A stretch of DNA of 32,000 nt from Caldimicrobium thiodismutans (GCF_001548275.1 NZ_AP014945.1:1740001-1772000), one strand, 5' to 3'; shown: positions 1 through 25,451, counted from the first letter of the stretch. Numbers and translations: made by a program. Notes: generated by a model from the letters alone, not told the origin.

Positions 1-1133
1 GTTGCACTGGAAATGAAGTTCTTATGCGTAAGGGGATACCTATTGCTGGATCTTTTATTCAGCAGGAAGTTGCTATTGCAACTGGAGCACTTGAAGCGGT
101 TGTTGTTGATGTGCAGTGTATCATGCAAAATGTAGTTGAAATAGCTAAACACTTTCATACAGCAGTGATTACCACAAGTCCCATTGCCATGATGGAGGGG
201 GCAACGCATATCCCCTTTGATGAAAAAAGGGCTTTAGAGGTTGCTAAGGAAATTTTAAGAACAGCTATTGCCAGATTTCCTCAGAGGGACCTTTCTAAGG
301 TAAATATTCCCGATCAGAGTGTGGATATTGTGGCTGGGTTTAGTCATGAGGCCATTATGTATATCCTTGGAGGAAGATTCAGGGCAAGTTATAAACCATT
401 AAATGAAAATATTATTAATGGAAAGATCCTTGGAATTGCAGCCATTGTGGGTTGCGATCAGTATAGAGTAAATGAGCCCATTCAGGTTGAGCTTGCTAAG
501 GAGCTTATTGCTAATAATGTGCTTGTTCTTGCCACAGGTTGTTCGGCAACCAACATGGCTATGGCAGGGCTTCTTTCTCCTGAAGCAGCAAAGCTTGCAG
601 GAGATGGTCTGAGAGAGGTTCTTGAAGCAGTAGGTTGTCCGCCTGTTCTTCACATGGGGGCTTGTGTGGATAATTCGCGAATTCTTATTGCAGCAACAGA
701 GATAGTTCATACAGGAGGTCTTGGAGATGATATATTTCAGATTCCAGCGGTAGGATGTGCCCCTCAGTGGATGAGTGAAAAGGCTATCGCTATTGGGATG
801 TATTTTGTTACCACGGGTGTTCAGGTTGTTTTTGGGCCTGATTTTCCAACCCTTGGAAGTAAAACTGTTACCGATTTTCTCTTCTATGAAATTGAAAATT
901 ATTTTAATGGATGCTGGAGGGTTGCAAGGACTGCCAATGAGTTTGCTAATATTATGATAGATAGAATTAATGGTGGAAGAAGGGCTCTTGGAATTGATAA
1001 GCCCAAGCCAAGAGTCCTCTTTGATATGGCTATGAGAAGGGCTCTTGAAGGGCCAAGATATGTGCCTGTGTTCCATGGACTTGGTTGTTTTGGTTCCCAT
1101 GAAAAGCTAACCACTGAAGAAAAAACTGCATAG
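1..1133 (+). CDS. cooS: Ni-dependent carbon monoxide dehydrogenase catalytic subunit (CooS/AcsA), 5'-truncated by the window edge
   Basis: The frame is open from nt 3 (CTGNEVLMRKGIPIAG..., the conserved CTGNE-LMR-G-P-AG region of CooS). ORF-track 24..1133 is only the Met-initiated tail. It lies directly upstream of the hdr/met/acs genes. Confidence 0.9.
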   Translation, partial: CTGNEVLMRKGIPIAGSFIQQEVAIATGALEAVVVDVQCIMQNVVEIAKHFHTAVITTSPIAMMEGATHIPFDEKRALEVAKEILRTAIARFPQRDLSKVNIPDQSVDIVAGFSHEAIMYILGGRFRASYKPLNENIINGKILGIAAIVGCDQYRVNEPIQVELAKELIANNVLVLATGCSATNMAMAGLLSPEAAKLAGDGLREVLEAVGCPPVLHMGACVDNSRILIAATEIVHTGGLGDDIFQIPAVGCAPQWMSEKAIAIGMYFVTTGVQVVFGPDFPTLGSKTVTDFLFYEIENYFNGCWRVARTANEFANIMIDRINGGRRALGIDKPKPRVLFDMAMRRALEGPRYVPVFHGLGCFGSHEKLTTEEKTA

Positions 1134-1148: not shown

Positions 1149-4100
1149 ATGAAGAATCCCAAAGGACAGGTCTTAGTTGTTGGGGGCGGAATTGCTGGGA
1201 TTCAGAGCGCTTTAGATTTAGCAGATCTTGGATTTTATGTTTATTTAGTGGAAAAAAAGGCAAGTATTGGTGGGGTAATGGCTCAACTTGATAAGACCTT
1301 TCCCACCAATGACTGTAGTATCTGAATCCTTGCCCCTAAGATGGTGGAGGCCGGGCGGTCTCCCAATATTGAAATCCTGACTCTGACTGAGGTGCTTGAG
1401 GTAAAGGGTAAGGCTGGAGACTTTAAGGTAAAGCTTAAAGTCAATCCTCGCTATATTGACCCGGATAAGTGCACTGCCTGTGGGGAGTGTATGAAGTATT
1501 GCCCAAGGCTTGCTATTGATACTTATAACGAGAATTTGACCTTTACCAGAGCTGCACGCATTGATTTTCCTCAGGCGGTGCCAACTAAGTATTATCTTGA
1601 TCCTGAGGTCTGTTTACGGTTAAATCATGAGACCTGTCAGCTCTGTAGTAATGTCTGCGGGCCAAAGGCCATAAATTTTGATCAGAAGCCAGAGATTAAA
1701 GAGGTTCAGGTGGGAGCTATTCTTTTGGCACCGGGTTTTGGAAAGGTCCCGGTTTCTGCTCTGGAAAAATTTGGCTATGGGAAGTTTAGTGATGTCCTCC
1801 ATAGTCTGGAGGTAGAAAGGCTTACCTGTGTAGCTGGGCCTACAGAGGGAGAGGTTATTAGACTTTCAGATTTCAAACATCCCAAAAGGATTGCCTATAT
1901 TCAATGCGTTGGCTCAAGGGATCTTACCTGTGGCCAGCCTTATTGTTCAAGTGTTTGCTGTATGTATGCAGTAAAACAGGCCTCAGTCATTAAGGAACAT
2001 GAGCCTTCTGCCGAAATTACCCTTTTCTTTATGGATGTGAGAACACAGGGTAAGGGTTTTGATGAGAGTTTTAGATCCGCGGTGGACAAGTATGGTTTCA
2101 AGGTGGTTAGGGCTCGGCCTGGTAAGGTTGATAGAGTTGATGGAAGGCTTGCTCTTAATTATGTAGATGAAGCTGGAGAAGTAAAAAGGGAATACTTTGA
2201 TCTCATTGTGCTTTCTGTTGGTTTGGGAGCTCCGGAGGACGCTGAAAAGCTTTCTCAGATCTTTGGGATTGAATTAAATGAGTTTAGATTTGCAAAGACA
2301 AATTATCTAAATCCCCTTGAGACCTCAAGACCAGGGATTTATGTAATTGGAGCCTTTCAGGGACCAAAGGATATTCCTGAAAGCGTTATTCAGGCAGGAG
2401 GTGGGGCAGCTCTTGCCTCGGAGCTTCTTAAAGATGGTAGAGGGACTTCCACGGTAGTCAAAGAATATCCCCCTGAGGATATAGAGCTTCTTTCTGAAGA
2501 ACCAAGGATTGGGGTCTTTGTCTGCCATTGTGGAGTAAATATTGCAGGAGTTGTGGATGTAAAGGAAGTAAGGGATTATGCTAAAACCCTTCCCAATGTT
2601 GTGCTTTCAGAAAATGTAGTCTATGCCTGTGCTCAGGATTCTCTTGTTCAGCTTGTAGATAAGATAAAAAAATATCGTCTCAATCGTATTGTTATGTCAG
2701 CCTGTACCCCAAGAACTCATGAGCCCTTATTTCAGGATACCTTAAGGGAGGCAGGTCTTAATTTAGCTCTCATTGAGATGGCTAATATTAGAGATCAGTG
2801 CGCCTGGGTGCATCCTGATAATCCTGAAAAGGCAACAGAAAAGGCTAAAGACCTTGTAAGGATGGCTGTGGCTAAGGCAAGGAGACTTAAACCCCTTGAG
2901 CTTCAGAGAGTAAAGGTAACTCCTTCAGCTTTAATAATAGGGGGCGGAGCTGCAGGAATGACCTCAGCCCTCTCCTTAGCTGAGCAAGGCTTTGAGGTCT
3001 TTTTGGTTGAGAAGGAGCCTGAGCTTGGTGGAACTTTAAGAAGGGTTAAGACCTTGATTGCTGGAGATGATCCTCAGGCCTTTTTAAAGGAGTTAATTGA
3101 AAAGGTTAAAGCCCATCCTAAGATTAAGGTCTTTACATCTGCAACCGTTGAAAACATCTCTGGTTATATTGGAAATTATACTACCACTATAAGGACAATG
3201 GAGGCTTCAGAAATTCTTAATCACGGAGTGGTAGTAGTAGCCACAGGAGGAAAAGAATACAGGCCATCAAGTTATCCCTTAGATGGTGAAAGGGTTATTA
3301 CGCAACTTGAACTTGAGGAGAGACTTACTAAGAAAAAGAGCAAAGGTTTTCCCAAGAGAGTGATTATGATTCAGTGTGCAGGCTCAAGGGGTGAGGAGCT
3401 TAAACATTGTAGTAAGGTCTGTTGTATTCAGGCTCTCAAGAATGCCTTAAAGATAAAAGAGCTTAGCCCAGAAACAGAGGTCTATATCCTTTATATGGAT
3501 ATGCGGGCCTATGGTTTTTATGAAAAATATTATCTATCTGCCAGAAAGAAGGGGGTTAAATTTATAAGATTTTCAGCAGATAAGCGCCCAAGAGTTGAGG
3601 TAAAGAACAAAAAAGCTGTTGTAAAGGTATGGGATACATTGTTGGCTGAAGAGCTTGAGCTTAAGGCAGATCTCTGTGTCCTTTCTGTGGGAATTACTGC
3701 AACAGAGGACAATAATATTGCCAGTATTCTCAAGTTGCCTGTAAATGATGAGGGTTTTCTGATGGAGGCCCATGTAAAATTAAGGCCTGTTGAAACTGCA
3801 ACAGATGGGGTCTATTTGGTAGGGCTTGCCCATAGTCCTCAGCTCTTGAGTGAGGTAATAGCGCAGGCTAAAGCCGGGGCAGGTAAGGCAGGTATTCCCC
3901 TTGCGAAGGGTTTTGTTGATGTGCCTCCTATTGTGGCAGAGGTTAATGAGGCTAAGTGTATTGGATGTGCCATCTGTGCTGAGGTATGTCCTTTCTCAGC
4001 TATTGAGATGGCTAAGGTTGAGAAGCGGAGAAAAGCAAGGGTCATTAAGGCAGCCTGTAAAGGCTGTGGGGTATGCGCCTCTCATTGTCCAGTTTTTGCC

Positions 4101-4211
4101 ATTGATGTTGGAGGATTTACTGGAGAGGCCATTCTTGAGCAATTGAGAGGATTTAAGAGAGAGGAAGAAAGAGTAGAAGAGGAAAAAGAAGCTAAGGCTG
4201 GAGGGGCTTAG
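1149..4211 (+). CDS. hdrA: HdrA-like flavoprotein/FeS oxidoreductase, selenocysteine-containing (UGA at 1323-1325, residue 59), 1020 aa
   Basis: ATG at 1149 lies 15 nt after the cooS stop with a GGGGAAG SD-like stretch. Translation of 1149-1340 gives [66 protein letters not shown], in frame with ORF 1341..4211. This is the HdrA TNDCSMC(I/L) motif with Sec at the second Cys. Later HdrA motifs are also present ([39 protein letters not shown]-terminal 2x CxxCxxCxxxCP). Confidence 0.85.
1346..1363 (+). promoter_or_regulatory. Candidate bacterial SECIS hairpin for the hdrA UGA
   Basis: ggaggcc-gggc-ggtctcc forms a 7-bp stem (one G.U) with a G-rich 4-nt loop. The stem starts 20 nt after the UGA. 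Confidence 0.35.
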
Positions 4212-4213
4212 AA

Positions 4214-4924
4214 ATGGATTTTGAACCCAGAATACTAAGCTTTATGTGTCACTGGTGATGTTACGCGGCAGCTGATGCGGCCGGGGTGGCTCGCCAGAAT
4301 TATCCCCCTTATCACAGGGTGATAAGGGTTATGTGTAGTGGCAGAGTAGATCCTCTTTTTGTCCTTGAAGCCTTTAAAAATGGGGCGGATGCTGTCATGG
4401 TTGGTGGCTGTAAACTTGGAGAGTGTAAGTATATGGATGGAAATTTTCAGGCCCTGATTATGGCAGAGATGGTCAAAAACCTTCTTAGATTAATAGGCAT
4501 AAAGGAGGAGAGATTCACCCTTGAATGGGTCTCATCTGCTGAACCTGCTAAACTTGTTGAGGATATGAAAAAATTTATGCTCAAGGTCAAAGAGCTTGGT
4601 CCTCTTGGCTCTGCTGAGGGGCTTAGTGAGGGGGATTTGAATTTTTATCTTGATTCAGCAATCGCTGTTTGCAAGAACATGCAAGTTCGCACAACTTATG
4701 GTAATATAGCCAAGGAATTGAAAAAATTACAAGATTTTTCTGAAGAGACCATTAAACAGAGGGTAGAAGAAAAACTTCTGCCTCAACTAAGGGGAAGACT
4801 TTATGAAATTGAGGTTAAGACCCTTATTCAGGACGGACCAAAGAGCCTTGATTATTTAGTTAGTAAGACTAAGGCCTCAGTTGATGAGCTAAACCCCATT
4901 TTATCTAAGCTTATGAAGACCTAA
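4214..4924 (+). CDS. mvhD: MvhD-like (methyl-viologen-reducing hydrogenase delta subunit family) protein, selenocysteine-containing (UGA 4256-4258, residue 15), with a C-terminal extension of about 90 aa
   Basis: ATG at 4214 lies 2 nt after the hdrA stop. Translation gives MDFEPRILSFMCHW-UGA-CYAAADAAGVARQNYPP, in frame with ORF 4286..4924. This matches the MvhD N-terminal F-C-C-N-W-C-(S/Y)-Y-A-G-A-D motif with Sec in place of the third Cys. RVMCSGRVDP and GADAVMVGGCKLGECKY motifs follow. Confidence 0.8.
4277..4294 (+). promoter_or_regulatory. Candidate SECIS hairpin for the mvhD UGA
   Basis: gcggcc-ggggt-ggctcgc forms a 6-bp stem with one bulged U and a G-rich loop, starting 18 nt after the UGA. 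Confidence 0.3.
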
Positions 4925-4935
4925 GGAGGAAAAAG

Positions 4936-5478
4936 TTGATTACCCTGAGTGTTAATGAAGGCGAGGTTAAAGGTTTTGTAGAGAGGGTAGTTACAAGTTA
5001 TGACCAGTGTTTTCGATGCGGAGCCTGTTCTGGAATTTGCCCGGTTAAAAAGACTACCAAGATCTTTGATCCCAGAAAGATTGTGCATCTTCTTCTCCTT
5101 GGATTTATGGATAAGGTCTTGAATGAGATTCTCTGGTATTGTTCTCAGTGTGGGTCCTGTGTTCCAGTGTGTCCCATGGATGTGAAGCCAAGAGATGTGA
5201 TAGGGGCTTTAAGAAATTATGCCCTTGAAAAGGGCCTTCTTGATGAGGAAAAGCTCTTTGAGCTTGGTGTTTTTGCCCGGGTTAATACGCAAAAGTGTAT
5301 AGTTTGTCTCACCTGCGTGAGAACTTGTCCCTTTTCAGCAGCTTCTATTGGAAACTTAGGTTTTGCTTATATAGAGCCCTCTAAGTGCAGGGCTTGTGGA
5401 ATCTGTGTTAAGGAGTGTCCAGCAAGAGCCATTGAGCTTAAACCTAAACCTGAATTTTTGGAGGTAAAGGCTGAATGA
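4936..5478 (+). CDS. Iron-sulfur protein with four CxxCxxCxxxCP-type cluster motifs (HdrC-like N-half plus 2x[4Fe-4S] ferredoxin C-half)
   Basis: Motifs seen: CFRCGACSGICP, CSQCGSCVPVCP, CIVCLTCVRTCP, CRACGICVKECP. TTG start is preceded by AAGGAGGA. The stop overlaps the next start (ATGA). Confidence 0.7.
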   Translation: MITLSVNEGEVKGFVERVVTSYDQCFRCGACSGICPVKKTTKIFDPRKIVHLLLLGFMDKVLNEILWYCSQCGSCVPVCPMDVKPRDVIGALRNYALEKGLLDEEKLFELGVFARVNTQKCIVCLTCVRTCPFSAASIGNLGFAYIEPSKCRACGICVKECPARAIELKPKPEFLEVKAE

Positions 5479-5870
5479 AGAATTCTTTTCAAATAACTAT
5501 TCTTTGTTGTAATTATACTAATTTAGCAGAAAGAGAGGACCTTGCCTCTCTCTTGGGAAAGATTGAGATAAAGAGATATCCCTGCTCCGGACATATTGAA
5601 ATTACAGATATATTAAGGGCCTTCAAAGAGGGAGCCAAAGCGGTGATGGTTGCTGGATGTAGTAAAGGAACCTGTCATAATCAAAAAGGAAGTGAGAGGG
5701 CTGAAAAGAGGGTTCTTGGAGCGAAAAAAATTCTTGAAGAGATTGGTATTGAACCTGAGAGAGTGGAGATGTTTTATGTTTCAAGACTTGATAGTGGAGA
5801 CTTTGTGGAAAAGGCCAAGGCCTTTTATCAGAGGGTCTTGAGTTTAGAGCTTAAGGAGAGGGCTCAATGA
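5475..5870 (+). CDS. Second MvhD-family protein (all-Cys paralog)
   Basis: Motifs ILCCNYTNLAE, YPCSGHIE and GAKAVMVAGCSKGTCHN parallel the upstream MvhD-like protein. ATGA overlaps occur at both ends, indicating translational coupling. Confidence 0.75.
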   Translation: MKNSFQITILCCNYTNLAEREDLASLLGKIEIKRYPCSGHIEITDILRAFKEGAKAVMVAGCSKGTCHNQKGSERAEKRVLGAKKILEEIGIEPERVEMFYVSRLDSGDFVEKAKAFYQRVLSLELKERAQ

Positions 5871-6547
5871 TTATAGCAGAGAGAAGGCCAATACCTGAGA
5901 TTTTGCAAAATATTGAAGGTTATGAGAAGGTGCTTGTGCTTGGATGCAGGGGGTGTGTGGCGGTTTGTTCAGCTGGGGGAGATAGAGAGGTAGCCATACT
6001 TGCTGAGGCCCTAAGGCTTGCCAGAACCCTTTCTGGAAAGCCTCTTGAGGTTCTTGAGGCAACCTTTATAAGGCAATGCGATCCAGAGTATCTTGAGCCT
6101 TTGAAAAAATACAAAGGTGAGGTTGAGGCAGTGGTCAGCCTTGCCTGTGGAGTGGGGGTGAATTTGATTGCAGATCTCTATCCTGAGATGAGGGTTTATC
6201 CCGGAGTTGATACCTCCTTTTATGGGGCTAATCTTTCTCTCGGAGAGTGGGTAGAAAAGTGTAGAGGTTGTGGAGATTGTATTATAGATAAGACAGCCGG
6301 GCTCTGTCCCATTGCCAGATGCGCTAAAAATCTTTTAAATGGTCCATGTGGAGGTTCACAGGGGGGAAGGTGCGAGGTAAGAAAGGAGATGCCCTGTATC
6401 TGGCATGAAATTGTGGAGAGAATGAAAAGGCGCGGAGAACTTGAAAAACTTATGGAAATCTGGGAACCTAAGGACTGGAGACCTGCAGGAGGAGATGGTT
6501 TGAGAGTAAGGATTAGAGATGACCTAAGACTTAATGGAGGGAATTAG
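5867..6547 (+). CDS. metV: MetV (methylenetetrahydrofolate reductase C-terminal-domain-like Cys-rich small subunit)
   Basis: Contains LVLGCRGCVAVCSAGG, CRGCGDCIIDKTAGLCPIARCAKNLLNGPCGG. It lies immediately upstream of metF, as in acetogen metVF pairs. Confidence 0.8.
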   Translation: MIIAERRPIPEILQNIEGYEKVLVLGCRGCVAVCSAGGDREVAILAEALRLARTLSGKPLEVLEATFIRQCDPEYLEPLKKYKGEVEAVVSLACGVGVNLIADLYPEMRVYPGVDTSFYGANLSLGEWVEKCRGCGDCIIDKTAGLCPIARCAKNLLNGPCGGSQGGRCEVRKEMPCIWHEIVERMKRRGELEKLMEIWEPKDWRPAGGDGLRVRIRDDLRLNGGN

Positions 6548-6549
6548 CC

Positions 6550-9069
6550 TTGGAAAGAAAAAGTCATCTTGAAAGTCTGCTTTCAGCGGGAAAATTTGCA
6601 GTTACAGCGGAGATTGGTCCTCCCAGGAATGCTGATTCCGAGGTTATTAAGAAAAAGGCCCGTCTTCTTAAAGGATTTGTGGATGCTGTAAATATTACCG
6701 ATTGCCAGACTGCGGTAGTGAGGGTTTCAAGCCTTGCTTCAGCAGTTTTGGTTTTAAGTGAAGGGCTTGAGCCTGTGTTACAGATGACTTGTAGAGATAG
6801 AAATAGGATTGGGATTCAGGCAGACCTTCTTGGGGCAAGTGCTCTGGGTATCAGGAATCTTCTTTGTTTAACCGGGGATCATCCAAAGTTTGGAAATCAT
6901 CCTCATGCCAAACCAGTCTTTGATCTTGATTCTATCCAGCTTCTTAGACTTGCTAAAGGACTTAATGAGGGAAGATTTGAAAATGGAGAAGAGATAAAAG
7001 GTTTAAGGCCATATTTTTTCTTGGGGGCTGCAGAAAATCCCTTTGCTGAGCCCTTTGATTTCAGGCCTTTTAGGTTAGCTAAAAAAGCTCGCGCTGGAGC
7101 CCGCTTTTTTCAGACCCAAATTATTTACAATGTGGATAAATTTAGAAAATTTATGGAGAAACTTAAAGATTTAGGGCTTACTGAAGAGGTTTATGTTCTT
7201 GCTGGAATAACTCCTCCCAAGTCCCTTGGGATGGCTAAATATATGAAATACAATGTCCCAGGTCTTGAGGTTCCTGATGAAATTATACAGAGGCTTGAGT
7301 CTGCTAAGGACAAAAAAGAAGAGGGGATTCAGATTGCCGTAGATATTATTCAGCAGGTAAAGGAAATCCCTGGTGTCAGGGGTGTCCATATCATGGCTAT
7401 TGAGTGGGAGGAAGCTGTTCCTGAGATTGTGAAAAGGGCAGGGCTTTCACCCCGAGAGTCAATAGCGGAGATGCACCCACCCTTTGTAGTAGAAAAGGTA
7501 GTAGAAAAGATTGTGGAAAAGCCTGTTGAGGTAGTTGTTGAAAAGATTGTGGAAAAACCAGTGGAAGTAATAGTTGAAAAGATAGTTGAAAAAGAAATAC
7601 CTCTGGAGGTAGAAATGGCAGGTGAGAAAATATCCGCATTAATTGAGATTCTTTCCGATCTTAAGGCAAGTCTAAAGAATCTGAGATCGGGTATGGAATC
7701 CTTAGAGGAGGGAATTGTAAAACTTGAGGAAGAATTTTTAGGGAAAAAAGAGGCTCGTCCAATAGTCAGAGAAATCCCTAAGCCTGCAGTGGAGGTAAAA
7801 CCACCAGTTAAGGTTGAGGAAAGGCCTGTAGAGGCAAAACCAGAGCTAAAGGCTGAACCCGAAGTTAAACCAGAGCTTAAACCTGAAGAAAAACCTGAAG
7901 TAAAACCAGAGATAAAACCTGAAGCTAAGCCTGAAGTCAAACCTGAGGTTAAACCTGAGGTAAAATCCGAAGTAAAACCTGAAGTGAAAGCTGAACCAAA
8001 ACCTGAAATAAAGCCAGAAGTAAAGCCTGAGGTGGAGCCTGAACCCAAACCTGAAGTAAAACCTGCTGAGGTTAAAATAGGAGGACTCAAAGGGGTCTAT
8101 AGACCTCTTTCTGCAAGGGCTTCAAAGATTGCCCAAGACCTTTATTTAGAAAAGGCAAATGGTGAGATTAGAGAGGTTCAGATAGGTAAGGGTGAGAAGG
8201 CCCTTAAGGTTGGAGGAATCTCAGGTATTAATTTTCATCTCTTTGAAGGGGAGATGAAAAATGGTCTTAAAATTGCCTTTGAGATTCTTGATGTAAAGCC
8301 AGAGGACTGGCCAGAGCATTTATCTAAATATTATAGCGATGTCTATCACGATCCTGGCCTCTGGGCTAAAAAGTGTGTTGAAGAGTATGGAGCTGAGGCT
8401 ATTTGTTTGTATCTTTTAGGCACGGATCCCAACTTTTTAAATCTTCCAGCAGAACATGCTAAAAAGGTAGCGGAAAAAGTTGTTTCTTCTGTTGATGTGC
8501 CTTTAATTGTCTGGGGATCAGGAAATGCAGAAAAGGATGTGGAGGTCCTGAGGGATGTTGCGGATATTGTTGGAGTTAGAGGTGCGGTAATTGGTCCTGT
8601 GGTTGAAGCTAATCACAGAACCTTAGCTGCAGTTGCTATGGGCTATAGTATCCCTGTAATTGCCTCAAGCCCTATAGATGTTAATCTTGCAAAACAGTTA
8701 AATATTCTTCTTGAAAATATGGGGCTTGCCTTAGATAAAATACTTATGGATCCATCGATTGGGGCTTTGGGATATGGTCTTGAATATACCTATTCTGTTA
8801 TGGAGAGGATAAGGCTTGCAGCCCTTTTTGCTCAGGATACCAAACTTCAGGTGCCCTTTATCTGTAGTATCGGTAAGGAGGTTTGGAAAACTAAGGAAGC
8901 CGGCCTTCCCACAGATGCCCTTATGGGAGATGCAGAATCAAGAGGGGTGCTTATGGAGGCCTTAACTGGCGTTACTCTTGCTTTAGCTGGTGGAGACCTT
9001 CTCATTATGAGACATCCTAAGTCAGTTGAGTTGTGTAAGATACTTTTTAATGGGTTAAGTTTAAGTTAA
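6550..9069 (+). CDS. Fusion protein: MetF (methylene-THF reductase, ~aa 1-300), repetitive linker (~aa 305-510), AcsD/CdhD (corrinoid Fe-S protein small subunit, ~aa 515-839)
   Basis: Uninterrupted 839-codon ORF with a TTG start 9 nt after GGAGGG. The N-terminal part shows FAVTAEIGPP, MTCRDRNR and LCLTGDHP (MetF). The C-terminal part shows VGGISGINFHLFEGEM..., PLIVWGSGNAEKD and MDPSIGALGYGLEYTYS (AcsD-like). Confidence 0.8.
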   Translation: MERKSHLESLLSAGKFAVTAEIGPPRNADSEVIKKKARLLKGFVDAVNITDCQTAVVRVSSLASAVLVLSEGLEPVLQMTCRDRNRIGIQADLLGASALGIRNLLCLTGDHPKFGNHPHAKPVFDLDSIQLLRLAKGLNEGRFENGEEIKGLRPYFFLGAAENPFAEPFDFRPFRLAKKARAGARFFQTQIIYNVDKFRKFMEKLKDLGLTEEVYVLAGITPPKSLGMAKYMKYNVPGLEVPDEIIQRLESAKDKKEEGIQIAVDIIQQVKEIPGVRGVHIMAIEWEEAVPEIVKRAGLSPRESIAEMHPPFVVEKVVEKIVEKPVEVVVEKIVEKPVEVIVEKIVEKEIPLEVEMAGEKISALIEILSDLKASLKNLRSGMESLEEGIVKLEEEFLGKKEARPIVREIPKPAVEVKPPVKVEERPVEAKPELKAEPEVKPELKPEEKPEVKPEIKPEAKPEVKPEVKPEVKSEVKPEVKAEPKPEIKPEVKPEVEPEPKPEVKPAEVKIGGLKGVYRPLSARASKIAQDLYLEKANGEIREVQIGKGEKALKVGGISGINFHLFEGEMKNGLKIAFEILDVKPEDWPEHLSKYYSDVYHDPGLWAKKCVEEYGAEAICLYLLGTDPNFLNLPAEHAKKVAEKVVSSVDVPLIVWGSGNAEKDVEVLRDVADIVGVRGAVIGPVVEANHRTLAAVAMGYSIPVIASSPIDVNLAKQLNILLENMGLALDKILMDPSIGALGYGLEYTYSVMERIRLAALFAQDTKLQVPFICSIGKEVWKTKEAGLPTDALMGDAESRGVLMEALTGVTLALAGGDLLIMRHPKSVELCKILFNGLSLS
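7486..7596 (+). repeat. In-frame tandem repeat, 36-nt/12-aa unit (EKIVEKPVEVVV), about 3 copies
   Basis: gaaaagattgtggaaaagcctgttgaggtagttgtt (7504-7539), gaaaagattgtggaaaaaccagtggaagtaatagtt (7540-7575) and partial units on both sides. Confidence 0.85.
7780..8076 (+). repeat. In-frame P/E/V/K-rich low-complexity tract (~99 aa) built from degenerate 18-nt (KPEVKP-type) units
   Basis: KPAVEVKPPVKVEERPVEAKPELKAEPEVKPELKPEEKPEVKPEIKPEAKPEVKPEVKPEVKSEVKPEVKAEPKPEIKPEVKPEVEPEPKPEVKPAEVK. The DNA shows repeated cctgaagt(a/t)aaacc variants. Confidence 0.85.
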
Positions 9070-9086: not shown

Positions 9087-11309
9087 ATGTCCAAAATTAT
9101 TGCAACCGCAGCAATAAGAGGGGCTCACAAAATTTTGGAGAGGGCCCTTGAGAAGTATGAAGAGGCAGTGAAAAAATTTGGAAAAGAGGCTGAGATTGGA
9201 TTCCCCAATACCGCTTATTATCTTCCTATAATTTATGCTATGCTCGGTTATCCTGTTAAGAGACTTGGGGATTGTGAAGAGGTTTTGCAGGAGGCTAAGA
9301 GACTTCTTCCTGAGATACCTTCTGAAAAGACCTGGCTTCCTTATCTGGGCCCGGCTCTGGATGCGGGAATGGCGACTTTTTTTGCTGAGGAGATTATTGA
9401 GGCCATTAAATATCTTGAAGATCCCAATGTATATACCAAGACAGAAGAACCCTTAGAAAATAATATCTGGCTTGGAGCAGCCGATGATGTTATTTTCAGG
9501 AAGAGGGGAGTTGAGTTTGTGGATGGCACAGCTCCGGGCTTTGCCGCTATCCTTGGTGCTCCTCCGGATAAGGAGACCGCTCAGCGTATTGCGCAGGAAC
9601 TCCTTGAAAAGAATCTCTATGTTTTTATGCATGATCAGACCAATGGGATTTACATGCCCTATTTGCTTAAAGAGGCAGGAGTTCAGCTTGGCTGGCCCAC
9701 GCGTTTAATTCCCTTTGGACCTGATTACACCTCTGTTGTCTTTGCCATTGGTTTTGCCTGCAGGGTGGCAATGTCCTTTGGTGGAATTAAGCCAGGAGAT
9801 TATCTTGGAAACCTTCTTTACAATAAGGATAGAACCTTTGCTTTTGCCATTACCTTTGGCCCGGTTTCGGATGAATGGTATGCCAATGGAGCCGGGGCTA
9901 TTAACTGGGGATTCCCCGTAATTTCCGACTGGGATATCCCTGAAATTAAGCCCTTTGGTGTTTGCACTTACGAACATGTGGTCTCTAAGGTCCCCCACAA
10001 AGAGATTGTAGATAGAGCTGTTGAGGTAAGAGGTCTAAAGGTTACAGCGGTAAAACTTGATATTCCTGTTTCCTATGCCCCAGCCTTTGAAGGGGAAAGA
10101 GTTAGAAAAGATGATCTTTATCTGGAGTGTGGAGGAGGAAGATCTCCTGCGGTAGAGCTTTTGTTAACAGGTTCTCTTGAAGAGGTAGAGGACGGAAAAA
10201 TTGAGGTCATTGGACCGGAAATAAGTGATGTAGAGAAACTCGGGATCAAGGGGCCTCCTTATGTGCTTCCCTTTGCAGTGGTGGTAAAGGTTGCTGGAGT
10301 TAATATGCAAGAAGACTTTGAGGCTATTCTGGAAAGACAATTCCATCATTTAGTAAACTATGCTCAGGGCATAATGCATGTGGGTCAGAGAAATATTATG
10401 TGGCTAAGAATCAGTAAACAAGCTGTAGAAAAGGGATTCCAGTTTGTGCATGTTGGTCGCATCCTCTATGCTAAGCTCAGACAGGAATATGGAGCTATTG
10501 TAGATAAGTGTCAGGTAACCATTTATACTGTTGAGGATAAGGTAAGAGAGATCCTTGAATTAGCCAAAGAGGTTTACGAGAAAAGAGACGCGAGACTTGC
10601 AGGGCTCACCGATGAGACAGTGGATGTCTTTTACTCCTGTACTCTCTGTCAGAGCTTTGCTCCCAATCATGTCTGTGTGATAACTCCAGAAAGAGTTGGA
10701 GCCTGTGGAGCTTATAACTGGCTTGATGGAAAAGCCTGTTATCAGATCAATCCTACCGGGCCTAATCAACCCATACCTAAGGGGGAGCTAATAGATGCAA
10801 CTCTCGGTCAATTTACAGGTGTTAATGAGTTTGTAAAGCAAGCCTCTCGTGGGGCTGTGGAAAGGGTAAGTCTCTATAGTATTCTTATAGACCCTATGAC
10901 AGTGTGTGGTTGTATGGAGGGAATTGCAGCCCTTTTACCTTCTATAAATGGCATTATGATTGTTAACAGAGACTATATGGGAATGACTCCTACAGGGATG
11001 AAGTTTTCAACCTTAGCGGGAATGGTTGGTGGAGGGCAAGTGACCCCTGGTTTTATGGGAGTTTCCAAGCATTACTTGACCTCTCCCAAGTTTCTTTCTT
11101 CAGAGGGAGGACTATTAAGGGTTGTTTGGATGCCAAAAATGTTAAAGGAAGAACTTAGAGATAAGCTTCAAAAGCGTGCGGAGGAGTTAGGAGTTCCTGA
11201 TCTTATAGAAAAGATTGCGGATGAGACAGTTGCCACAACTGAGGAAGAGGTCAGGGCCTGGATTGAAAAGGTTGAGCATCCTGTGCTCAAGCTTCCTCCC
11301 TTAGTATAA
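9087..11309 (+). CDS. acsB: Acetyl-CoA synthase catalytic subunit (CO-methylating ACS, AcsB/CdhC)
   Basis: Contains CTLCQSFAPNHVCVITPERVGACGAYNWLDGKA and the CGCMEG A-cluster Cys-Gly-Cys motif. 740 aa. Confidence 0.95.
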   Translation: MSKIIATAAIRGAHKILERALEKYEEAVKKFGKEAEIGFPNTAYYLPIIYAMLGYPVKRLGDCEEVLQEAKRLLPEIPSEKTWLPYLGPALDAGMATFFAEEIIEAIKYLEDPNVYTKTEEPLENNIWLGAADDVIFRKRGVEFVDGTAPGFAAILGAPPDKETAQRIAQELLEKNLYVFMHDQTNGIYMPYLLKEAGVQLGWPTRLIPFGPDYTSVVFAIGFACRVAMSFGGIKPGDYLGNLLYNKDRTFAFAITFGPVSDEWYANGAGAINWGFPVISDWDIPEIKPFGVCTYEHVVSKVPHKEIVDRAVEVRGLKVTAVKLDIPVSYAPAFEGERVRKDDLYLECGGGRSPAVELLLTGSLEEVEDGKIEVIGPEISDVEKLGIKGPPYVLPFAVVVKVAGVNMQEDFEAILERQFHHLVNYAQGIMHVGQRNIMWLRISKQAVEKGFQFVHVGRILYAKLRQEYGAIVDKCQVTIYTVEDKVREILELAKEVYEKRDARLAGLTDETVDVFYSCTLCQSFAPNHVCVITPERVGACGAYNWLDGKACYQINPTGPNQPIPKGELIDATLGQFTGVNEFVKQASRGAVERVSLYSILIDPMTVCGCMEGIAALLPSINGIMIVNRDYMGMTPTGMKFSTLAGMVGGGQVTPGFMGVSKHYLTSPKFLSSEGGLLRVVWMPKMLKEELRDKLQKRAEELGVPDLIEKIADETVATTEEEVRAWIEKVEHPVLKLPPLV

Positions 11310-11332: not shown

Positions 11333-12703
11333 ATGGGACTTACGGGAATTCAGATACTTGGTAAATTACCTAAAAAGAACTGTAAGGAGTGCGGATTTCC
11401 AACCTGTATGGCTTTTGCTATGAAAGTTGCTGCAGGACAGGCAGAAATTACCGCCTGCCCTTATGTAGATCCCAAGGTAGTTGAAGAGATAGCAGAAGCA
11501 ACGGCACCACCCATTCGAACAGTTAAAATTGGAGGTGGAGACTTTGTTTATTCCTTGGGAGGGGAGACAGTTCTTTTTCGTCACGAAAAACGCTTTGAAA
11601 ATCCTCCTTTAATCGGAACTTATATAAACACATCTATGGATGAAGCTGAAATAAACAGGCGAATTCAACTTTATAAGAACCTGGTATGGGACAGAGTAGG
11701 GATTAAGCTTCAGCCAGATGTGGTTTTCCTTCAAAGTGACGGGGCTTCAGAAAAATTTGAATCCCTGGTAAAAAGGATAAGAGAGGAACTTCCTCAGGTG
11801 GCTATAATTCTTTCTGGAGATAAACCTTCTTTACAAAAGGGAATCTCGGCCTGTGGAGATTTTAAACCCCTTCTTTATGGGGCAAACAGTCAAAATTTTG
11901 ATGAGATGGCTGGGCTTGCAGAGGAGACCAAGGTGCCTCTGACTTTGTTAGGGAACTCTTTAGATGAACTAACAGAGCTTTCGGAGCGTGCCCTTCAGAA
12001 AGGACTTAAAGATTTAGTGCTTGATCCCGGTTCCCAAAATGTGAGGGAACTTTTTGAAGACTTAGTTATTATTCGTAGGTCTGCAATAAAAAAACGCTAT
12101 AAACCTTTTGGATTTCCAGTAATAACCTTTTCTTATAAGTATACAGATGATTATCTTCTTGAAAGCTCAATTGCTGGGATGCTTATTGCTAAGTATGCCA
12201 GCGTGATCATCCTTTCGGATTTAAGGGCAGAAAGCCTTTTCAATCTTTTAGTTGAAAGGATGAATATATTTACCGATCCTCAGAAGCCTCTTGTTGTTGA
12301 AGAGGGCATTTATCCAGTGAACGGACCAGATGAGTATTCTCCAGTTATCATCACTTGCAATTTTGCCCTTACTTACTTTATTGTAAATGGTGAGGTGGAG
12401 GGAAGTAGGGTGCCCACCTGGTTGTTGATAAAAAATACCGATGGACTTTCAGTGTTGACTGCATGGGCTGCTGGAAAATTTGGTGCAGATAGTATTGCAG
12501 AATTTGTAAAAAAATGCGGCATAGAGGGAAAGGTAAAACACCGTAAAATCTCCATTCCTGGATATTTAGCAGGAATTAAAGGGGAACTTGAGGAGGAGCT
12601 ACCTGGCTGGGAGATTATTGTTGGTCCAAGAGAGGCAAGCGGTCTTCCAGCTTTTCTTAAAAAGTTGTCAGCAGAACTGAAAGAAACCGCTAAAGCGGCT
12701 TAA
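11333..12703 (+). CDS. acsC: Corrinoid iron-sulfur protein large subunit (AcsC/CdhE)
   Basis: The N-terminal LPKKNCKECGFPTCMAFAMKVAAGQAEITACP [4Fe-4S] motif is typical of AcsC. Its size and acs context also fit. Confidence 0.9.
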   Translation: MGLTGIQILGKLPKKNCKECGFPTCMAFAMKVAAGQAEITACPYVDPKVVEEIAEATAPPIRTVKIGGGDFVYSLGGETVLFRHEKRFENPPLIGTYINTSMDEAEINRRIQLYKNLVWDRVGIKLQPDVVFLQSDGASEKFESLVKRIREELPQVAIILSGDKPSLQKGISACGDFKPLLYGANSQNFDEMAGLAEETKVPLTLLGNSLDELTELSERALQKGLKDLVLDPGSQNVRELFEDLVIIRRSAIKKRYKPFGFPVITFSYKYTDDYLLESSIAGMLIAKYASVIILSDLRAESLFNLLVERMNIFTDPQKPLVVEEGIYPVNGPDEYSPVIITCNFALTYFIVNGEVEGSRVPTWLLIKNTDGLSVLTAWAAGKFGADSIAEFVKKCGIEGKVKHRKISIPGYLAGIKGELEEELPGWEIIVGPREASGLPAFLKKLSAELKETAKAA

Positions 12704-12786
12704 AAATAAAAAGGAGTCAACTATCAAAATAGGATAAGGTAAAAATGTTTGCCATGGCAAATCATCCCGGTATTATTAATCCTCTT

Positions 12787-12819
12787 AAAGGGAAGAACAA
12801 GTTAGGCACTTCCCTTTTT
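12787..12819 (+). terminator. Intrinsic-terminator-like hairpin downstream of acsC
   Basis: aaagggaag-(13-nt loop)-cttcccttt followed by tt. The GGGAAG/CTTCCC core stem runs into a T5 tract. Confidence 0.35.
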
Positions 12820-12970
12820 AGAAATACCTTTATTGCTTTTCCATTTACCGGGACTCTTAATCGCAGGATTAAGCCCTGTATAATATTTGATAATCTCTTT
12901 AGAAAAGTGGAGAGTTCTTCAATTTGGCTTTTAAGAAAAAAGAGTTTTGAATGTGGATAGAAGAGATTTT

Positions 12971-12999
12971 TTGCAAAGAGCACATGCTTATATTATAAA
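12971..12999 (+). promoter_or_regulatory. Sigma-70-like promoter candidate upstream of acsE (TTGCAA-N17-TATAAA)
   Basis: TTGCAA at 12971-12976 and TATAAA at 12994-12999, about 25 nt upstream of the acsE start. An alternative extended -10 TGTATAAT lies at 12877-12884. Confidence 0.3.
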
Positions 13000-13023
13000 C
13001 AAAAAATTGCAGGAGGTAGAAAA

Positions 13024-13920
13024 ATGGGAGAGATTGTAGTTTGCATTGCTGAAAGTATAAACATTATGGGTAAAAAAACAGGGCCTGCTATGAAAGAGAG
13101 GAATCCTCAACCTATTCAACAGATGGCCAAAGAAGAAACTGAGCTTGGGGGCGATTATTTGGATCTCAATATTGGACCAGCTAAAAAGGACGGCCCTGAG
13201 CTTGCAAGCTGGATTGTAAAGGTGGTGGAGGAGGTTGTGGATACTCCCCTTTCCTTAGACACTACTAATCCTGATGCAATGATAGCAGGAATTAAGGCCT
13301 CAAGAAAGCCTTCTACCTTTCTCATGAACTCCATTTCAATTCAGCCTGAGAGACTTGAAAAACTTGGACCCTTTGCAGCTGAGGTTGGCTGTGATGTGGT
13401 GGCACTACTCTGGGGGCTTGAGGGACTTCCAAGAGATGCCAATGAAAGGGCAGCCCTTGCTGTAGATCTCATCATGAAACTCAACGAATACGGTATTCCT
13501 AATGAGAAGATTTGGGTAGATCCTATTTTGACTCCTATTACTCTTGGAGCAGAGCAGATTCAGGAGGCCCTTACCTTTTTATCTATGCTTCAAGATATTG
13601 CCCCGGGAGCTAAAAGCACAATAGGTCTTTCCAATGTTTCCAACGGAGTAGCCCATCATCTTAGACCCTATCTTAACAGGGTAATGCTTATGATGCTTAT
13701 GAAGTATGATATTTATAGCGCTATTGTGGATGTTTATGATAAGGAGCTTGTGGAGGTTGCCAAAGGTAAGCATCCCGATTGGGTAGCTCTTGTTCATCGG
13801 ATGATGGATGGGGAAGAACCTGATCCAAAAGGGCTTACTCCTAAGGAACTTGAAATTTATAAGACTTACAAGGTTTTGAGTGGCCAGAGTATTTTCTCTG
13901 AGTCCTGGTTAGAGCTATAA
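13024..13920 (+). CDS. acsE: Methyl-THF:corrinoid/iron-sulfur protein methyltransferase (AcsE; pterin-binding DHPS-like fold)
   Basis: AESINIMGKK...GGDYLDLNIGPA...SLDTTNP...GLSNVSNG pattern of pterin-binding methyltransferases. AGGAGG RBS is present and the gene sits in acs context. Confidence 0.85.
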   Translation: MGEIVVCIAESINIMGKKTGPAMKERNPQPIQQMAKEETELGGDYLDLNIGPAKKDGPELASWIVKVVEEVVDTPLSLDTTNPDAMIAGIKASRKPSTFLMNSISIQPERLEKLGPFAAEVGCDVVALLWGLEGLPRDANERAALAVDLIMKLNEYGIPNEKIWVDPILTPITLGAEQIQEALTFLSMLQDIAPGAKSTIGLSNVSNGVAHHLRPYLNRVMLMMLMKYDIYSAIVDVYDKELVEVAKGKHPDWVALVHRMMDGEEPDPKGLTPKELEIYKTYKVLSGQSIFSESWLEL

Positions 13921-13959
13921 ATATTAAAAAGATTGTCCATTACCTCAGGAGTTAGAGCT

Positions 13960-16900
13960 GTGCTGAAAATTAAGGTAAATCAAAAAGAAATAAAAGCTGA
14001 AAAAGGTGAGCTTCTTCTTAATGTGCTTAGACGAGAAGGCATTTATGTTCCTACTTTATGTTATCTTAAAGAGAAAACTTTACCGTCTAATCCCTGTGGA
14101 TTATGTATTGTTAAGATTGAAGGGGAAGGTATTGTTAGAAGCTGTAGCTATCGCATAGAAAAGGAGATAAAGGTTGAGACAGATACTTCCGAGATTAAAG
14201 ATATTAGAAAAAAGATTCTTGAAAATTTGGTTGCTAATCATTATGGAGATTGCAAAGCTCCCTGTCATACTCCCTGTCCCGGAGGTTTAAATATCCAGGG
14301 GTATATTGGTTTTATTGCCAAAGGAGATTTTAAGGCCTCCCTTGCCCTTATTAAGGAAAAGCTTCCTATACCTGCTGTGGTAGGAAGGGTCTGTCCCAGA
14401 TTTTGTGAGCCTGTTTGTAGAAGGGCACTGGTAGATCAAGCGGTAGCCATAAATAATCTCAAGAGATTTGTGGCAGATTATTGTCTTGAACATGGAGAAC
14501 TTCCTCTGGAACTTCCTCCTTTGAATAATAGAAGGGTAGCCATTATAGGTGCAGGTCCAGCTGGTATTAGCTGTGCCTATTTCTTGAGGCTAAAGGGATA
14601 TCAAGTAACAATCTTTGATAAAGAAGAGGAACCAGGTGGCCTTTTAAGATATGGAATTCCCTCTTTTAAACTCCCCCGTAATGTCCTGAAAAAGGAGCTT
14701 GAGAATATATTTAAAATGGGAATTACCTTTCAGGGGGGGAAGAGCTGGGGTAAAGATTTTACCTTTAAAGATCTTAAAGCATCTGGATTTGAGGCTATTT
14801 TTATAGCTATTGGCTCAAGGAAAGAGAAATGTTTTGGATTTCAGGGAGAAGAACTGGCTGAAAGTGGCTTTAATTTTCTCTATGATTTTAACAAAGGGCT
14901 AATTAAAAAGGAGAAATTTCAGGGTAAAAAGGTAGCTCTTTTAGGCTGTAGTTATACAGCTCTTGAGTTAAGCAGGATCCTGCGAAGATTAGGCTGTTCC
15001 GTAACTATTTACTATCCACGCTCAAGGATGGAAGTTCCTGTTCCTCAGAGAGAGGTAGGCTATGCCCAGAAGGAAGGAGTAAATTTCATATATGTTACCG
15101 CGCCCTGGACTCTTGAGAAATTAAATGGCACTTATAAGGTAACCTTTGTAAGAACAAGTTTAACAGAAAAAAAGGAGATTAAACCTCTTCCCGAGACAGC
15201 CTTTGAAGAGGAGTTCGACCTTGTCTTCAGGGCCTGGGGTGAGGTTCCCTCGGATGAATTTCGGGCCTTTGGAGAGCTTGAGTCCCAACTTGAGGTCAAT
15301 CCTGAGGGATATATAAAGGTTGATCCCAAGACACTTTCCACAAATCTTGAGGGAGTTTTTGCTGGTGGCGATTTTATTTATGGGTCTAAGACTGTTATTC
15401 AGGCGGTTGCTTCGGGAAGAAAAGCAGCTGAAACTATTTCAGCCTTTCTGGAAAAGAGACCCCTTGAAAAGACCCCTATCACTGTTAAATATGATTTTTC
15501 CCGTGGGAAAAGAGCAGAAGAGTTTGATTCAAACTTCCTGGATCTCTTCATTCCTGAAGAAAGGGCTCAACTGAAGGAAAGGGATCCCAAGGAAAGAGTT
15601 TGTGATTTTGAAGAGGTTCTCATAGGTTTAACAAAGGAAGAGGCTTTAAAAGAGGCCAATCGCTGTTTAAGGTGTGGTTGCCTGGGAATTCATAAGTGTG
15701 AGTTTAGAGAACTTCTTATTAAGGAGGATGTAGGAGTTGCTAAGGCGCGCAAAAAAATTAAATATGCCATTCAGAAAAATCACCCTCTTATTGAGGTAGA
15801 TTCCAATAAGTGTATTGCCTGTGAAAGATGTGTAAGAACCTGTCCTTATTCAGCTATCTTTTTTAGAGTAGTTAATAAAGGGAAGCCAACGGAACATATC
15901 ACTTTTAGATTTACGGAGTCTTGCATTAATTGTGGGGCCTGTGTGGATGCCTGTCCCACAGGTGCTTTGATAAAGAAAAATCTCCTTGTGCCCTATAACA
16001 GGAATAATGCTCGAGCAGTGAAATCAGTATGTGGATATTGTGGGGTTGGCTGTAATCTAACTATTTGGGTCAAAAATAGAACTATTTTAGAAGTTACAGG
16101 GAGGGATCTTGCCCCTAATTATGGCTATGCCTGTGTAAAGGGACGTTTTGGTTTTGAATTTTATAAAAGTGAGGAGAGATTAACTAAGCCTCTTCTCCGT
16201 AAGGATCGCTTGAAGAACTTTGAGGAAGTCTCTTGGGAGACAGCGCTTGAATTTGTGGCTGAAAATCTCTTGAAGATAAGAGATAAATATGGCCCTCAGG
16301 CTTTAGGATTTCTTTGCTCTGCACGCACATCCAATGAGGAAAACTATCTCATGCAAAAGATAGCCAGGGGTATTTTTAAGACTAACAATGTAGATAATCC
16401 TGCGCGGGTCTGACATGCTCCATCGGTCGCAGGTCTTGCGGCCACAGTTGGAACAGGAGCTGCCTGTGTTAATTTTGACGAAATTTATAATGCAGACCTT
16501 CTATTTCTTGTAGGGACAAATTCCTGGGATGCTCATCCCATTGTAGCTCAGAAAATCAAGCAAGCCCTTGAAAAGGGAACTAAGTGCCTGGTTGCTGATC
16601 CACGAAGAATTTATTTTACAGATAAAGCCAATCTCTTTTTACCTTTAAGACCAGGAAGTAATATACCTCTTCTCAATGGAATGGCCCATGTGATAATAAA
16701 AGAGGAGCTCTATGATAAAGAGTTTGTGGAAAATAATGTGGACAATTTTGAGGCATACAAACATTACATCTTAAGTGAGTGGGATCTTGCCAAGGCAAGC
16801 AGATATACAGGGCTTAAGCCTTTTCTAATTGAAGAGGCAGCCTATCTTTATTCTCAGGCAAAGAGAGCTCTTATTCTTTGGGGGCTTGGGGTTTCCGAAC

Positions 16901-19829: not shown

Positions 19830-19901
19830 GCGGGCGTAGCTCAGGGGTAGAGCGGGAGCTTCCCAAGCTTCAGGCCGCGGGTTCGAATCCCGTCGCCCGC
19901 T
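19830..19901 (+). tRNA. tRNA-Gly (anticodon CCC)
   Basis: Hand-folded cloverleaf: acceptor GCGGGCG/CGCCCGC, D arm GCTC-AGGGGTA-GAGC, anticodon arm GGAGC-TTCCCAA-GCTTC, T arm GCGGG-TTCGAAT-CCCGT. No CCA is encoded. Confidence 0.9.
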
Positions 19902-25414: not shown

Positions 25415-25451
25415 CACAAATATTTGCATTTGCTAAAATTTGTGTTATAAT
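25415..25451 (+). promoter_or_regulatory. nikR promoter (TTTGCA-N17-TGtTATAAT) overlapped by the dyad CACAAAT-N16-ATTTGTG (candidate NikR operator)
   Basis: Half-sites at 25415-25421 and 25438-25444 are exact reverse complements separated by 16 nt. -35 at 25423-25428 and extended -10 at 25443-25451. Confidence 0.4.

Follow-up and report, generated by a model that had tools for sequence, protein, structure and literature searches.

Are the enzyme that makes methyl-tetrahydrofolate (CH3-THF) and the corrinoid protein that receives its methyl group encoded as a single polypeptide in Caldimicrobium thiodismutans and, if so, what is the link for? The question is raised by a gene at 6550-9069 on the plus strand of a 32,000-nucleotide stretch of this genome (GCF_001548275.1, NZ_AP014945.1:1740001-1772000; the whole stretch is called the window here), in which MetF, a methylene-THF reductase (MTHFR), is joined through a long linker to AcsD, the small subunit of the corrinoid iron-sulfur protein (CFeSP). 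Based on domain, structural and comparative analyses, we believe that this metF-acsD fusion is vertically inherited and that it probably tethers the MetFV/HdrA/MvhD reductase to the CFeSP/methyltransferase machinery.

One gene encodes MetF and AcsD

The original prediction, made from the sequence of the window, held that this region is one uninterrupted open reading frame (ORF), with MetF at about residues 1-300 and AcsD/CdhD at about residues 515-839. The frame does run for 839 codons without a stop, from a TTG start 2 nt past the metV stop, and all the motifs quoted in that prediction are found in the protein. A domain search of the two halves, which had been proposed as a check, matched both expected families. 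In the N-terminal half, the Pfam MTHFR family PF02219 covers residues 7-298 (E 5.9e-40; 137.8 bits against a cut-off of 24) over profile positions 2-287 of 287, that is, the whole domain. In the C-terminal half, which holds a complete AcsD domain at about residues 529-837, the Pfam CdhD family PF03599 covers residues 542-783 (E 8.7e-39; 133.8 bits against a cut-off of 24.8). Two domain matches near 1e-40 in so long an ORF lie far beyond what chance would give.

Structure supports the same assignments. AlphaFold2 (AF2), run on the single chain with a 70-sequence alignment of fusions as input, gave two confident TIM barrels, one at each end of the protein. The MetF half matched the Thermus thermophilus and Escherichia coli MTHFR structures with target-normalised template modelling (TM) scores of 0.75-0.80, and the AcsD half matched the CFeSP small subunits 2h9a_B and 4djd_D with scores of 0.93 and 0.88. 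By sequence, residues 3-299 of the 310 in 2h9a_B (from C. hydrogenoformans) were aligned at E 6e-75. In the MetF half, E21, D110 and Q190 are invariant in the 70 aligned fusions and have a putative role in the catalytic or FAD site; as a lead, we take them to pair with Glu28, Asp120 and Gln183 of E. coli MetF. The NCBIfam delta-subunit model NF003376 matched residues 533-836 with 362 bits (cut-off 280), and the exception-level model NF040759 (WLP_AcsD) reached 281 bits, below its cut-off of 430; these profile scores place the AcsD half inside the delta-subunit family and outside the narrowly defined acetogen AcsD model.

The linker carries a conserved module

Between the two barrels lies a low-complexity linker of about 220 aa, 74% of whose residues are P, E, K, V or A. 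Three tandem 12-aa units, a coiled-coil-like stretch and a region of P/E/V/K had been predicted here, and each has a counterpart in the analysis. The 12-aa units are a repeat of 36 nt in 2.6 copies at 7499-7593, inside the first linker segment, and the P/E/V/K region is an array of 12 nt in 17.5 copies, encoding KPEV, at 7856-8065 in the second (both by Tandem Repeats Finder). Between them AF2 placed a single long helix at residues 359-396 with conserved heptads, flanked by residues 313-366 and 396-505 with a predicted local distance difference test (pLDDT) score below 50.

The hydrophobic a/d positions of this helix (361, 364, 368, 371, 375, 378, 382, 385, 389, 392 and 396) follow an unbroken 3-4 spacing. 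Ten of the 11 are L, I, V, M or F in 96-100% of the 47 closest sequences, the remaining one, position 361, in 72%; across all 70 fusions, seven (368, 371, 375, 378, 382, 392 and 396) are 97-100% hydrophobic. Taking as a coiled coil a helical segment whose a/d pattern is unbroken over at least four heptads, both the alignment and the AF2 model assign the linker helix to this class, and residues 361-396 are a predicted five-heptad coiled coil inside an otherwise unalignable linker.

A module at this position is conserved in 70/70 aligned fusions and is of two types. In Thermodesulfobacteria-type fusions it is the five-heptad coiled coil; in Desulfobulbia and Dissulfuribacterales fusions the motif GLxALKKAxGLS(D/E)(D/E)QF stands in the helix's place. 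A hidden Markov model (HMM) of the coiled coil matched Thermodesulfobacteria-type helices at 1e-13 to 1e-20 and gave only marginal matches, at the equivalent position, in the Desulfobulbia type, and for this reason we treat the latter motif as related to the coiled coil but probably distinct from it. Around the module, the linker ranges from 92 to 456 aa among fusions and varies widely in sequence and composition: it is PEVK-like and EKxV-rich in the group of Caldimicrobium and Thermosulfurimonas, and carries tetratricopeptide (TPR) repeats in many other lineages. No TPR family of Pfam matched the 839-aa protein at E <= 0.01. The predicted 'non-globular tether' is indeed long and mostly disordered, but it is not a featureless arm; it consists of two disordered spacers flanking a conserved interaction module.

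A few matches to this region were set aside. Pfam gave a weak match to Trypan_PARP (17.5 bits, cut-off 100) and the PDB gave matches to circumsporozoite protein and eL29, all of which reflect the composition of the PEVK array, not homology. The minus-strand ORFs at 7350-8090 and 7397-7639 are low-complexity mirrors of the repeat, and we do not count them as genes.

The fusion is widespread in Thermodesulfobacteriota

Of 5.8 billion protein clusters searched, 840 matched at E <= 1e-20. The best 120 of these were inspected for domains, and nearly all carry PF02219 and PF03599 in one protein. The closest, from metagenome-assembled genomes (MAGs) of Caldimicrobium, are 822-872 aa long and 77-82% identical over the aligned regions, collinear end to end. 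More distant carriers include Thermosulfurimonas, Thermodesulfatator, Thermosulfuriphilus, Dissulfurimicrobium, Dissulfurirhabdus, Dissulfuribacterales and Desulfobacteraceae, and among them are isolates with the fusion on closed or large contigs (Thermosulfurimonas marina, 1.76 Mb; Thermosulfuriphilus ammonigenes, 2.29 Mb; Thermodesulfatator indicus, 2.32 Mb). In a scan of GTDB with one genome per species, 20 of the best 80 MetF loci were fused, all in Thermodesulfobacteriota. Those named below phylum are Thermodesulfatator, Thermodesulfobacteriales, Dissulfuribacterales, Desulfobacterales, Desulfobulbaceae, Desulfocapsa and Desulfurivibrio; the remaining ones bear only broad MAG labels (Deltaproteobacteria, Proteobacteria, Thermodesulfobacteriota). 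The architecture that the prediction had proposed to look for in related genomes is thereby found in both data sets.

Could the fusion be an artefact, two neighbouring genes falsely joined because a repeat in 7400-8100 was collapsed or a frameshift or stop there was missed? The linker DNA is repetitive, and two MAG loci (L026 and L066) show broken frames. However, of the best 120 clusters, which were assembled independently and include isolates, nearly all show the same fusion, as do the 20 GTDB species, and the closest homologues are collinear throughout. Furthermore, the repeat periods of 12 and 36 nt are multiples of three, so a collapsed repeat would alter the length of the protein and not its reading frame. 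Given these observations, we consider an assembly artefact to be effectively refuted. In L026 and L066 themselves, metF or the stretch behind it shows changes of frame that appear to break the fusion; assembly errors are the probable cause, with real pseudogenisation or fission as a possible alternative.

On a neighbour-joining tree of MetF, which is distance-based and carries no support values, the fused genes fall into a single clade, within which the fusion studied here groups with those of Caldimicrobium, Thermodesulfobacterium and Thermodesulfatator. Two loci show the genes apart. In 'Ca. Thermodesulfobacterium syntrophicum' (L003), which groups with this MetF on the tree, metF ends just past a conserved AGLxPRP motif and, 28 nt on, GGAGG-N5-ATG opens a 411-aa acsD whose N-terminus is the coiled coil. 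Since the coiled coil stays on AcsD in this split form, the helix goes with AcsD in function. A Desulfobacterales MAG (L008) has a plain split of metF and acsD.

The other 56 of the 80 loci have no AcsD in the locus: 54 hold complete stand-alone MetF genes and two hold ORFs cut by a contig end. The stand-alone genes come from Chloroflexota, Brocadiaceae, Actinomycetota and others. Those of Chloroflexota, anammox Brocadiaceae and Actinomycetota (L010-L080) have no acsD within 8 kb, and their MetF domains are 57-67% identical to the fused one, which suggests that Wood-Ljungdahl anaerobes widely share this MetF type or have transferred it among themselves.

A candidate internal start may yield a second product

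Directly before the linker helix, positions 7603-7617 read CTGGAGGTAGAAATG, in which a Shine-Dalgarno (SD) sequence is followed by an in-frame ATG (Met356). In this gene and eight related fused genes of the Caldimicrobium-like clade, the equivalent ATG is present in 9/9, with a 5-mer SD 4-10 nt 5' of it in eight and a 4-mer in the ninth; among the other in-frame ATGs of these genes such an SD occurs in 1/151, all of these counts coming from related sequences and not from independent events. The amino acids around the site vary (LEVEM, LEEEM, ELEEGM, GEEEM, LETEM) while the nucleotide motif persists, and GGAGG, at a spacing of 6-10 nt, also precedes the true starts of genes in the operon. In L003 the homologous GGAGG-N5-ATG is the ribosome-binding site and start of the separate acsD. 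No internal SD-ATG was present in the P0008 lineage or in the Thermodesulfatator-like and Thermodesulfobacteriales fusions examined (L001, L039). It is plausible that a second, 484-aa product (coiled coil-PEVK-AcsD) is made from Met356, although we put this forward as a hypothesis. Such a one-gene, two-product arrangement is worth considering when proteomes are read: as the internal ribosome-binding site is conserved, an AcsD-sized protein in a proteome would not count against the fusion.

Taken further, the same signal could mean that the gene is functionally split, with initiation at Met356 supplying the working CFeSP small subunit and the full-length chain being minor or regulatory, for example by coupling AcsD output to MetF translationally. 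The conserved GGAGG-N5-ATG and its homology to a true acsD start are what such a gene would show. However, there is no stop codon ahead of Met356, so that ribosomes on metF must make the full-length chain, and as the internal start is missing from Thermodesulfatator-like and P0008 fusions it cannot explain the family as a whole. We regard a functionally split gene as distinctly unlikely.

Other fusions arose in the same operon family

MetF-AcsD is not the only fusion in these operons; two more, independent of it, connect the same machineries. In a P0008-lineage locus (L090, 7866-9302) the MvhD gene that precedes metV is fused to AcsE, giving a protein of 478 aa with FlpD and Pterin_bind domains joined by an E/R/K-rich linker that is probably a single alpha-helix. 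There is no separate acsE after acsC in this locus, and the fusion, which is found in two clusters (P0132, P0133), takes the place of individual genes for MvhD and AcsE. Fusions of AcsC with AcsE, 776-823 aa long (FeS, CdhD and Pterin_bind domains), occur in more than 20 clusters (P0134-P0144, P0182-P0208) from Thermodesulfobacterium-like lineages, including L003 (12452-14782), where metF and acsD are split. Three different covalent links thus join MetF, MvhD, AcsC, AcsD and AcsE in the operon family; two of them, those of MetF with AcsD and of MvhD with AcsE, connect the reductase complex to the methyl-transfer machinery. Together, we believe, the three fusions predict which complexes touch in vivo. 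Separately, five clusters of 564-572 aa (P0223, P0224, P0229, P0231 and P0237) combine Pterin_bind with CdhD and possibly represent another AcsE fusion architecture.

These observations bear on whether the fusion has any selected role. It may have arisen by neutral read-through, when a stop was lost between adjacent metF and acsD genes, leaving a drifting linker derived from the spacer and two halves without selected coupling. A linker that is hypervariable in length and sequence would be expected from such an origin, and split forms evidently work in nature (L003, L008). Against this, the fusion has been kept across classes of a phylum, the linker module is conserved in all 70 aligned fusions, TPR repeats, which mediate protein interactions, have been inserted in many lineages, and this operon family also gave rise to fusions of MvhD and of AcsC with AcsE. 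Neutral read-through is, in our judgement, unlikely.

The fusion lies in a Wood-Ljungdahl operon

The fusion gene sits after metV and before acsB-acsC-acsE, within a Wood-Ljungdahl operon of the order fhs-folD-acsA-hdrA-mvhD-FeS-mvhD-metV-[metF.acsD]-acsB-acsC-acsE-fdh (Table 1). The fhs and folD genes are those found just upstream of the operon in relatives, and the order is identical in five related loci (L081-L084 and L090). No second acsD was found in the window; since the fusion is the sole acsD of the operon, the CFeSP of this pathway must use its C-terminal half.

Table 1. Coordinates of the fusion gene, its parts and the neighbouring operon genes in the window
Feature	Position	Strand	Details
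CODH catalytic subunit gene (acsA/cooS), 3' part	24..1133	+	cut by window start
Electron-input module	1149..5870	+	HdrA-like, MvhD-like, HdrC-like, MvhD
HdrA-like	1149-4211	+	HdrA2-type match, 876 bits; selenocysteine TGA 1323-1325
MvhD-like	4214-4924	+	selenocysteine TGA 4256-4258
HdrC-like polyferredoxin	4936-5478	+	profile scan
MvhD	5475-5870	+	FlpD/MvhD profile
metV (DUF5981/MetV), MetF partner subunit	5867..6547	+	PF12225, E 5.9e-36
metF-acsD fusion gene	6550..9069	+	839 aa; TTG start, GGAGG 9 nt upstream
MetF (MTHFR, FAD TIM-barrel) domain	6550..7449	+	residues 1-300; profile, alignment, AF2 and fold matches
Linker segment 1	7450..7623	+	residues 301-358; disordered (V/I)VEK(P)VE repeats
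Candidate internal Shine-Dalgarno + ATG	7605..7617	+	GGAGG 7605-7609, 5 nt, ATG 7615-7617 (Met356), in frame
Conserved amphipathic helix	7624..7740	+	residues 359-397; alignment, AF2, helix HMM
Linker segment 2	7741..8106	+	residues 398-519; PEVK-like disordered spacer
AcsD (CFeSP small subunit, TIM barrel) domain	8107..9069	+	residues 520-839; profile, PDB sequence and fold matches
acsB	9087-11309	+	profile scan
acsC, CFeSP large subunit	11333-12703	+	NF003195, 561 bits
acsE methyltransferase	13024-13920	+	profile scan

Two FlpD/MvhD proteins are encoded alongside the fusion. The larger of them has about 100 more C-terminal residues past its FlpD domain, and its in-frame TGA, in FMCHW-U-CYAAADAAG, probably specifies selenocysteine in place of a cluster-ligand Cys. 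The HdrA-like gene, with an ATG at 1149, is likewise an apparent selenoprotein gene, which the gene callers applied to relatives cut into pieces of 57-58 aa and about 955 aa.

A characterised point of comparison is the methylene-THF reductase of Moorella thermoacetica, reportedly a hexameric MetFV-HdrABC-MvhD complex described by Mock and colleagues in 2014. As in Moorella, a metV-metF pair is preceded by hdrA and mvhD next to acs genes, and the MetF is of the acetogen type that needs MetV, with metV directly upstream. In Moorella, MetF is a separate protein of about 300 aa and acsD a separate gene. The electron-input module also differs, with two MvhD-like proteins, selenocysteine in HdrA and one MvhD, and no HdrB (CCG) found.

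This arrangement raises another reading of the tether, namely that it sets the HdrA/MvhD/MetV bifurcating module beside CFeSP and CO dehydrogenase/acetyl-CoA synthase (CODH/ACS), delivering low-potential electrons to CFeSP reactivation or to CO2 reduction. No second electron acceptor is known for the Moorella complex, the hdrA-mvhD genes lie between acsA (CODH) and metV-metF.acsD, and MvhD is itself fused to AcsE in L090. Nevertheless, these are all matters of context, a flexible tether of 220 aa does not bring redox centres within electron-transfer distance, and we consider such wiring very unlikely.

Comparison with known systems

The original prediction was unaware of any description of this architecture, but one exists in print. 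Melton et al. 2016 (PMC5016858) labelled an 'mthfr/acsD ... fusion' in Desulfurivibrio alkaliphilus, in a figure based on the MLMS-1 cluster that Pierce et al. 2008 had defined; it is a gene label only, with no analysis of linker or function. The fusion is not mentioned in the genome papers on T. dismutans (PMC4911364), Dissulfurimicrobium (PMC8780430) and Thermosulfurimonas F29 (PMC9676032), nor in those on D. autotrophicum (PMC2702500) and the sulfate-reducing partner bacteria of anaerobic methanotrophs (PMC10553843). The architecture is thus on record but apparently uncharacterised; the linker coiled coil, the internal GGAGG-N5-ATG, the differences in linker between clades and the fusions of AcsE with MvhD and with AcsC seem to be undescribed so far.

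Database naming obscures the fusion further. The same sequences are called 'acetyl-CoA decarbonylase/synthase complex subunit delta' by NCBI and 'Methylenetetrahydrofolate reductase' by UniRef, with some genome papers also using MTHFR, and as each fusion is annotated under one of the two names, pathway reconstructions can miss metF or acsD. Two MTHFR genes are listed in the Dissulfurimicrobium paper, both far outside the Wood-Ljungdahl cluster (PMC8780430), and in the T. dismutans paper no gene is named as a separate AcsD (PMC4911364).

In Desulfurivibrio alkaliphilus AHT2 and delta proteobacterium MLMS-1, a Wood-Ljungdahl acs cluster holds these two domains in the order found here. The Desulfurivibrio fusions (L045, L046) are about 56-64% identical to the one studied here and fall in the same MetF clade, but the Desulfobulbia-type linker has a helix-turn-helix-like GLxALKKAxGLSDDQF motif where ours has a continuous coiled coil and a PEVK array. 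The TPR-linker fusions of Thermodesulfatator, Thermosulfuriphilus, Dissulfuribacterales and Desulfobacterales (880-1100 aa) share the terminal domains and operon position, and carry PF00515, PF07719, PF13414 and others, whereas the protein here has no TPR.

Among characterised proteins, the AcsC/AcsD CFeSPs (PDB 2h9a, 2ycl, 4djd and 9fzy) align over their full small subunit with the C-terminal 310 residues at 40-42% identity. In contrast to the present protein, whose AcsD is preceded by a coiled coil, a spacer of about 120 aa and a whole MTHFR, those small subunits lack any extension at the N-terminus. In NCBIfam, the MetF half is best matched by the YitJ-type homocysteine S-methyltransferase/MTHFR (NF006396; E 6e-70, profile positions 310-587), in which an MTHFR is likewise joined to a consumer of its CH3-THF; there, however, the partner is an N-terminal homocysteine methyltransferase on a short link, and the pathway is methionine synthesis rather than the acetyl-CoA pathway. 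Titin PEVK, the (EP)n(KP)n of TonB and the Ala/Pro-rich arms of 2-oxoacid dehydrogenase E2 are flexible or extended linkers of similar Pro/Glu/Val/Lys-rich low complexity, an analogy only, as there is no homology and the arm here carries no prosthetic group.

A model for the tether

Given that a full MetF and the operon's only AcsD are on one polypeptide, a physical link between the reductase and CFeSP is built into the gene. In our model, the N-terminal half, with MetV and the HdrA/MvhD electron module, would reduce methylene-THF; the C-terminal half would form CFeSP with AcsC; and AcsE would move the methyl of freshly made CH3-THF onto the CFeSP corrinoid. The tether would set a 1:1 stoichiometry and hold the reductase within roughly 10 nm of CFeSP, AcsE and ACS, creating a methyl-branch supercomplex; this reach is a polymer-physics estimate for disordered spacers of this length. 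The coiled coil would most likely dimerise two protomers, matching the 2:2:2 CFeSP-methyltransferase (MeTr) complex (4djd, MeTr-(CFeSP)2), or else dock a partner. Structures of CFeSP-MeTr (4djd) and of CODH/ACS-CFeSP (9fzy) are precedents for such complexes. The PEVK spacer may let the CFeSP half shuttle between AcsE and ACS, and the internal start would probably add untethered coiled-coil-AcsD.

A swinging arm or a channelling device, as the tether might also be read, is something that we infer rather than observe. CH3-THF diffuses freely, and for such a metabolite the mere closeness of two enzymes brings little kinetic channelling; because proximity alone is so weak a channelling device, we favour assembly and stoichiometry as the benefit of the link.

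Several points weigh against a tethering role. The covalent link is dispensable, as viable split forms exist in L003 and L008, so that of the predicted covalent coupling between enzyme and corrinoid protein the presence in the gene stands while its necessity does not. The variation in linker length and composition is also what neutral drift would produce, the pLDDT of the linker helix is moderate (about 50-66), and the genes behind the internal-start counts are related. The HdrB/CCG models had no match among the operon ORFs scanned, although HdrB could lie outside the window; going by the window, the electron-input module is not of the characterised Moorella HdrABC type. Finally, our literature search found no expression, proteomic or biochemical data for any member of the fusion family. 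These points temper the tethering model, which we nonetheless hold to be the probable one.

The fusion bears on how methylene-THF reduction by Hdr-type reductases is coupled to energy conservation and tied to the remainder of the acetyl-CoA pathway. One could go further and propose a stable supercomplex, marked by the MetF-AcsD tether and the two sister fusions, in which the flavin-based bifurcating HdrA/MvhD/MetFV reductase is coupled both physically and electronically to CFeSP and CODH/ACS, with the carbonyl-branch machinery serving Hdr-type reductases as their second, low-potential acceptor of electrons, the coiled coil as the assembling element and the internal start tuning the ratio of tethered to free CFeSP. 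We give this larger scheme only a slim chance of being correct.

Further observations in the window

AcsE is 298 aa long, and the NCBIfam methyltransferase models span only residues 6-247. The C-terminal extension of about 50 aa is kept in relatives, where the protein is called 'dihydropteroate synthase' (NCBI) or 'methionine synthase I' (JGI). This extension was considered as a partner for the linker coiled coil and rejected, as it lacks a long amphipathic heptad stretch. Upstream of acsE, the gap to acsC (12704-13023) comprises 320 nt of non-coding DNA, compared with about 20-35 nt in relatives; an Rfam scan of the whole window returned only a tRNA, and nothing in this spacer or in the linker DNA.

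Downstream, 13933-18045 encodes a GltD/NfnB-like flavoprotein fused to a formate dehydrogenase alpha subunit, with a TGA at 16411-16413 in NPARV-U-HAPSV; read through this codon, the region would be one selenoprotein of about 1370 aa and not two ORFs. A tRNA lies at 19830-19901, and a NikR-type nickel-responsive regulator is encoded at 25440-25901, about 7 kb 3' of the Ni-dependent CODH/ACS operon.

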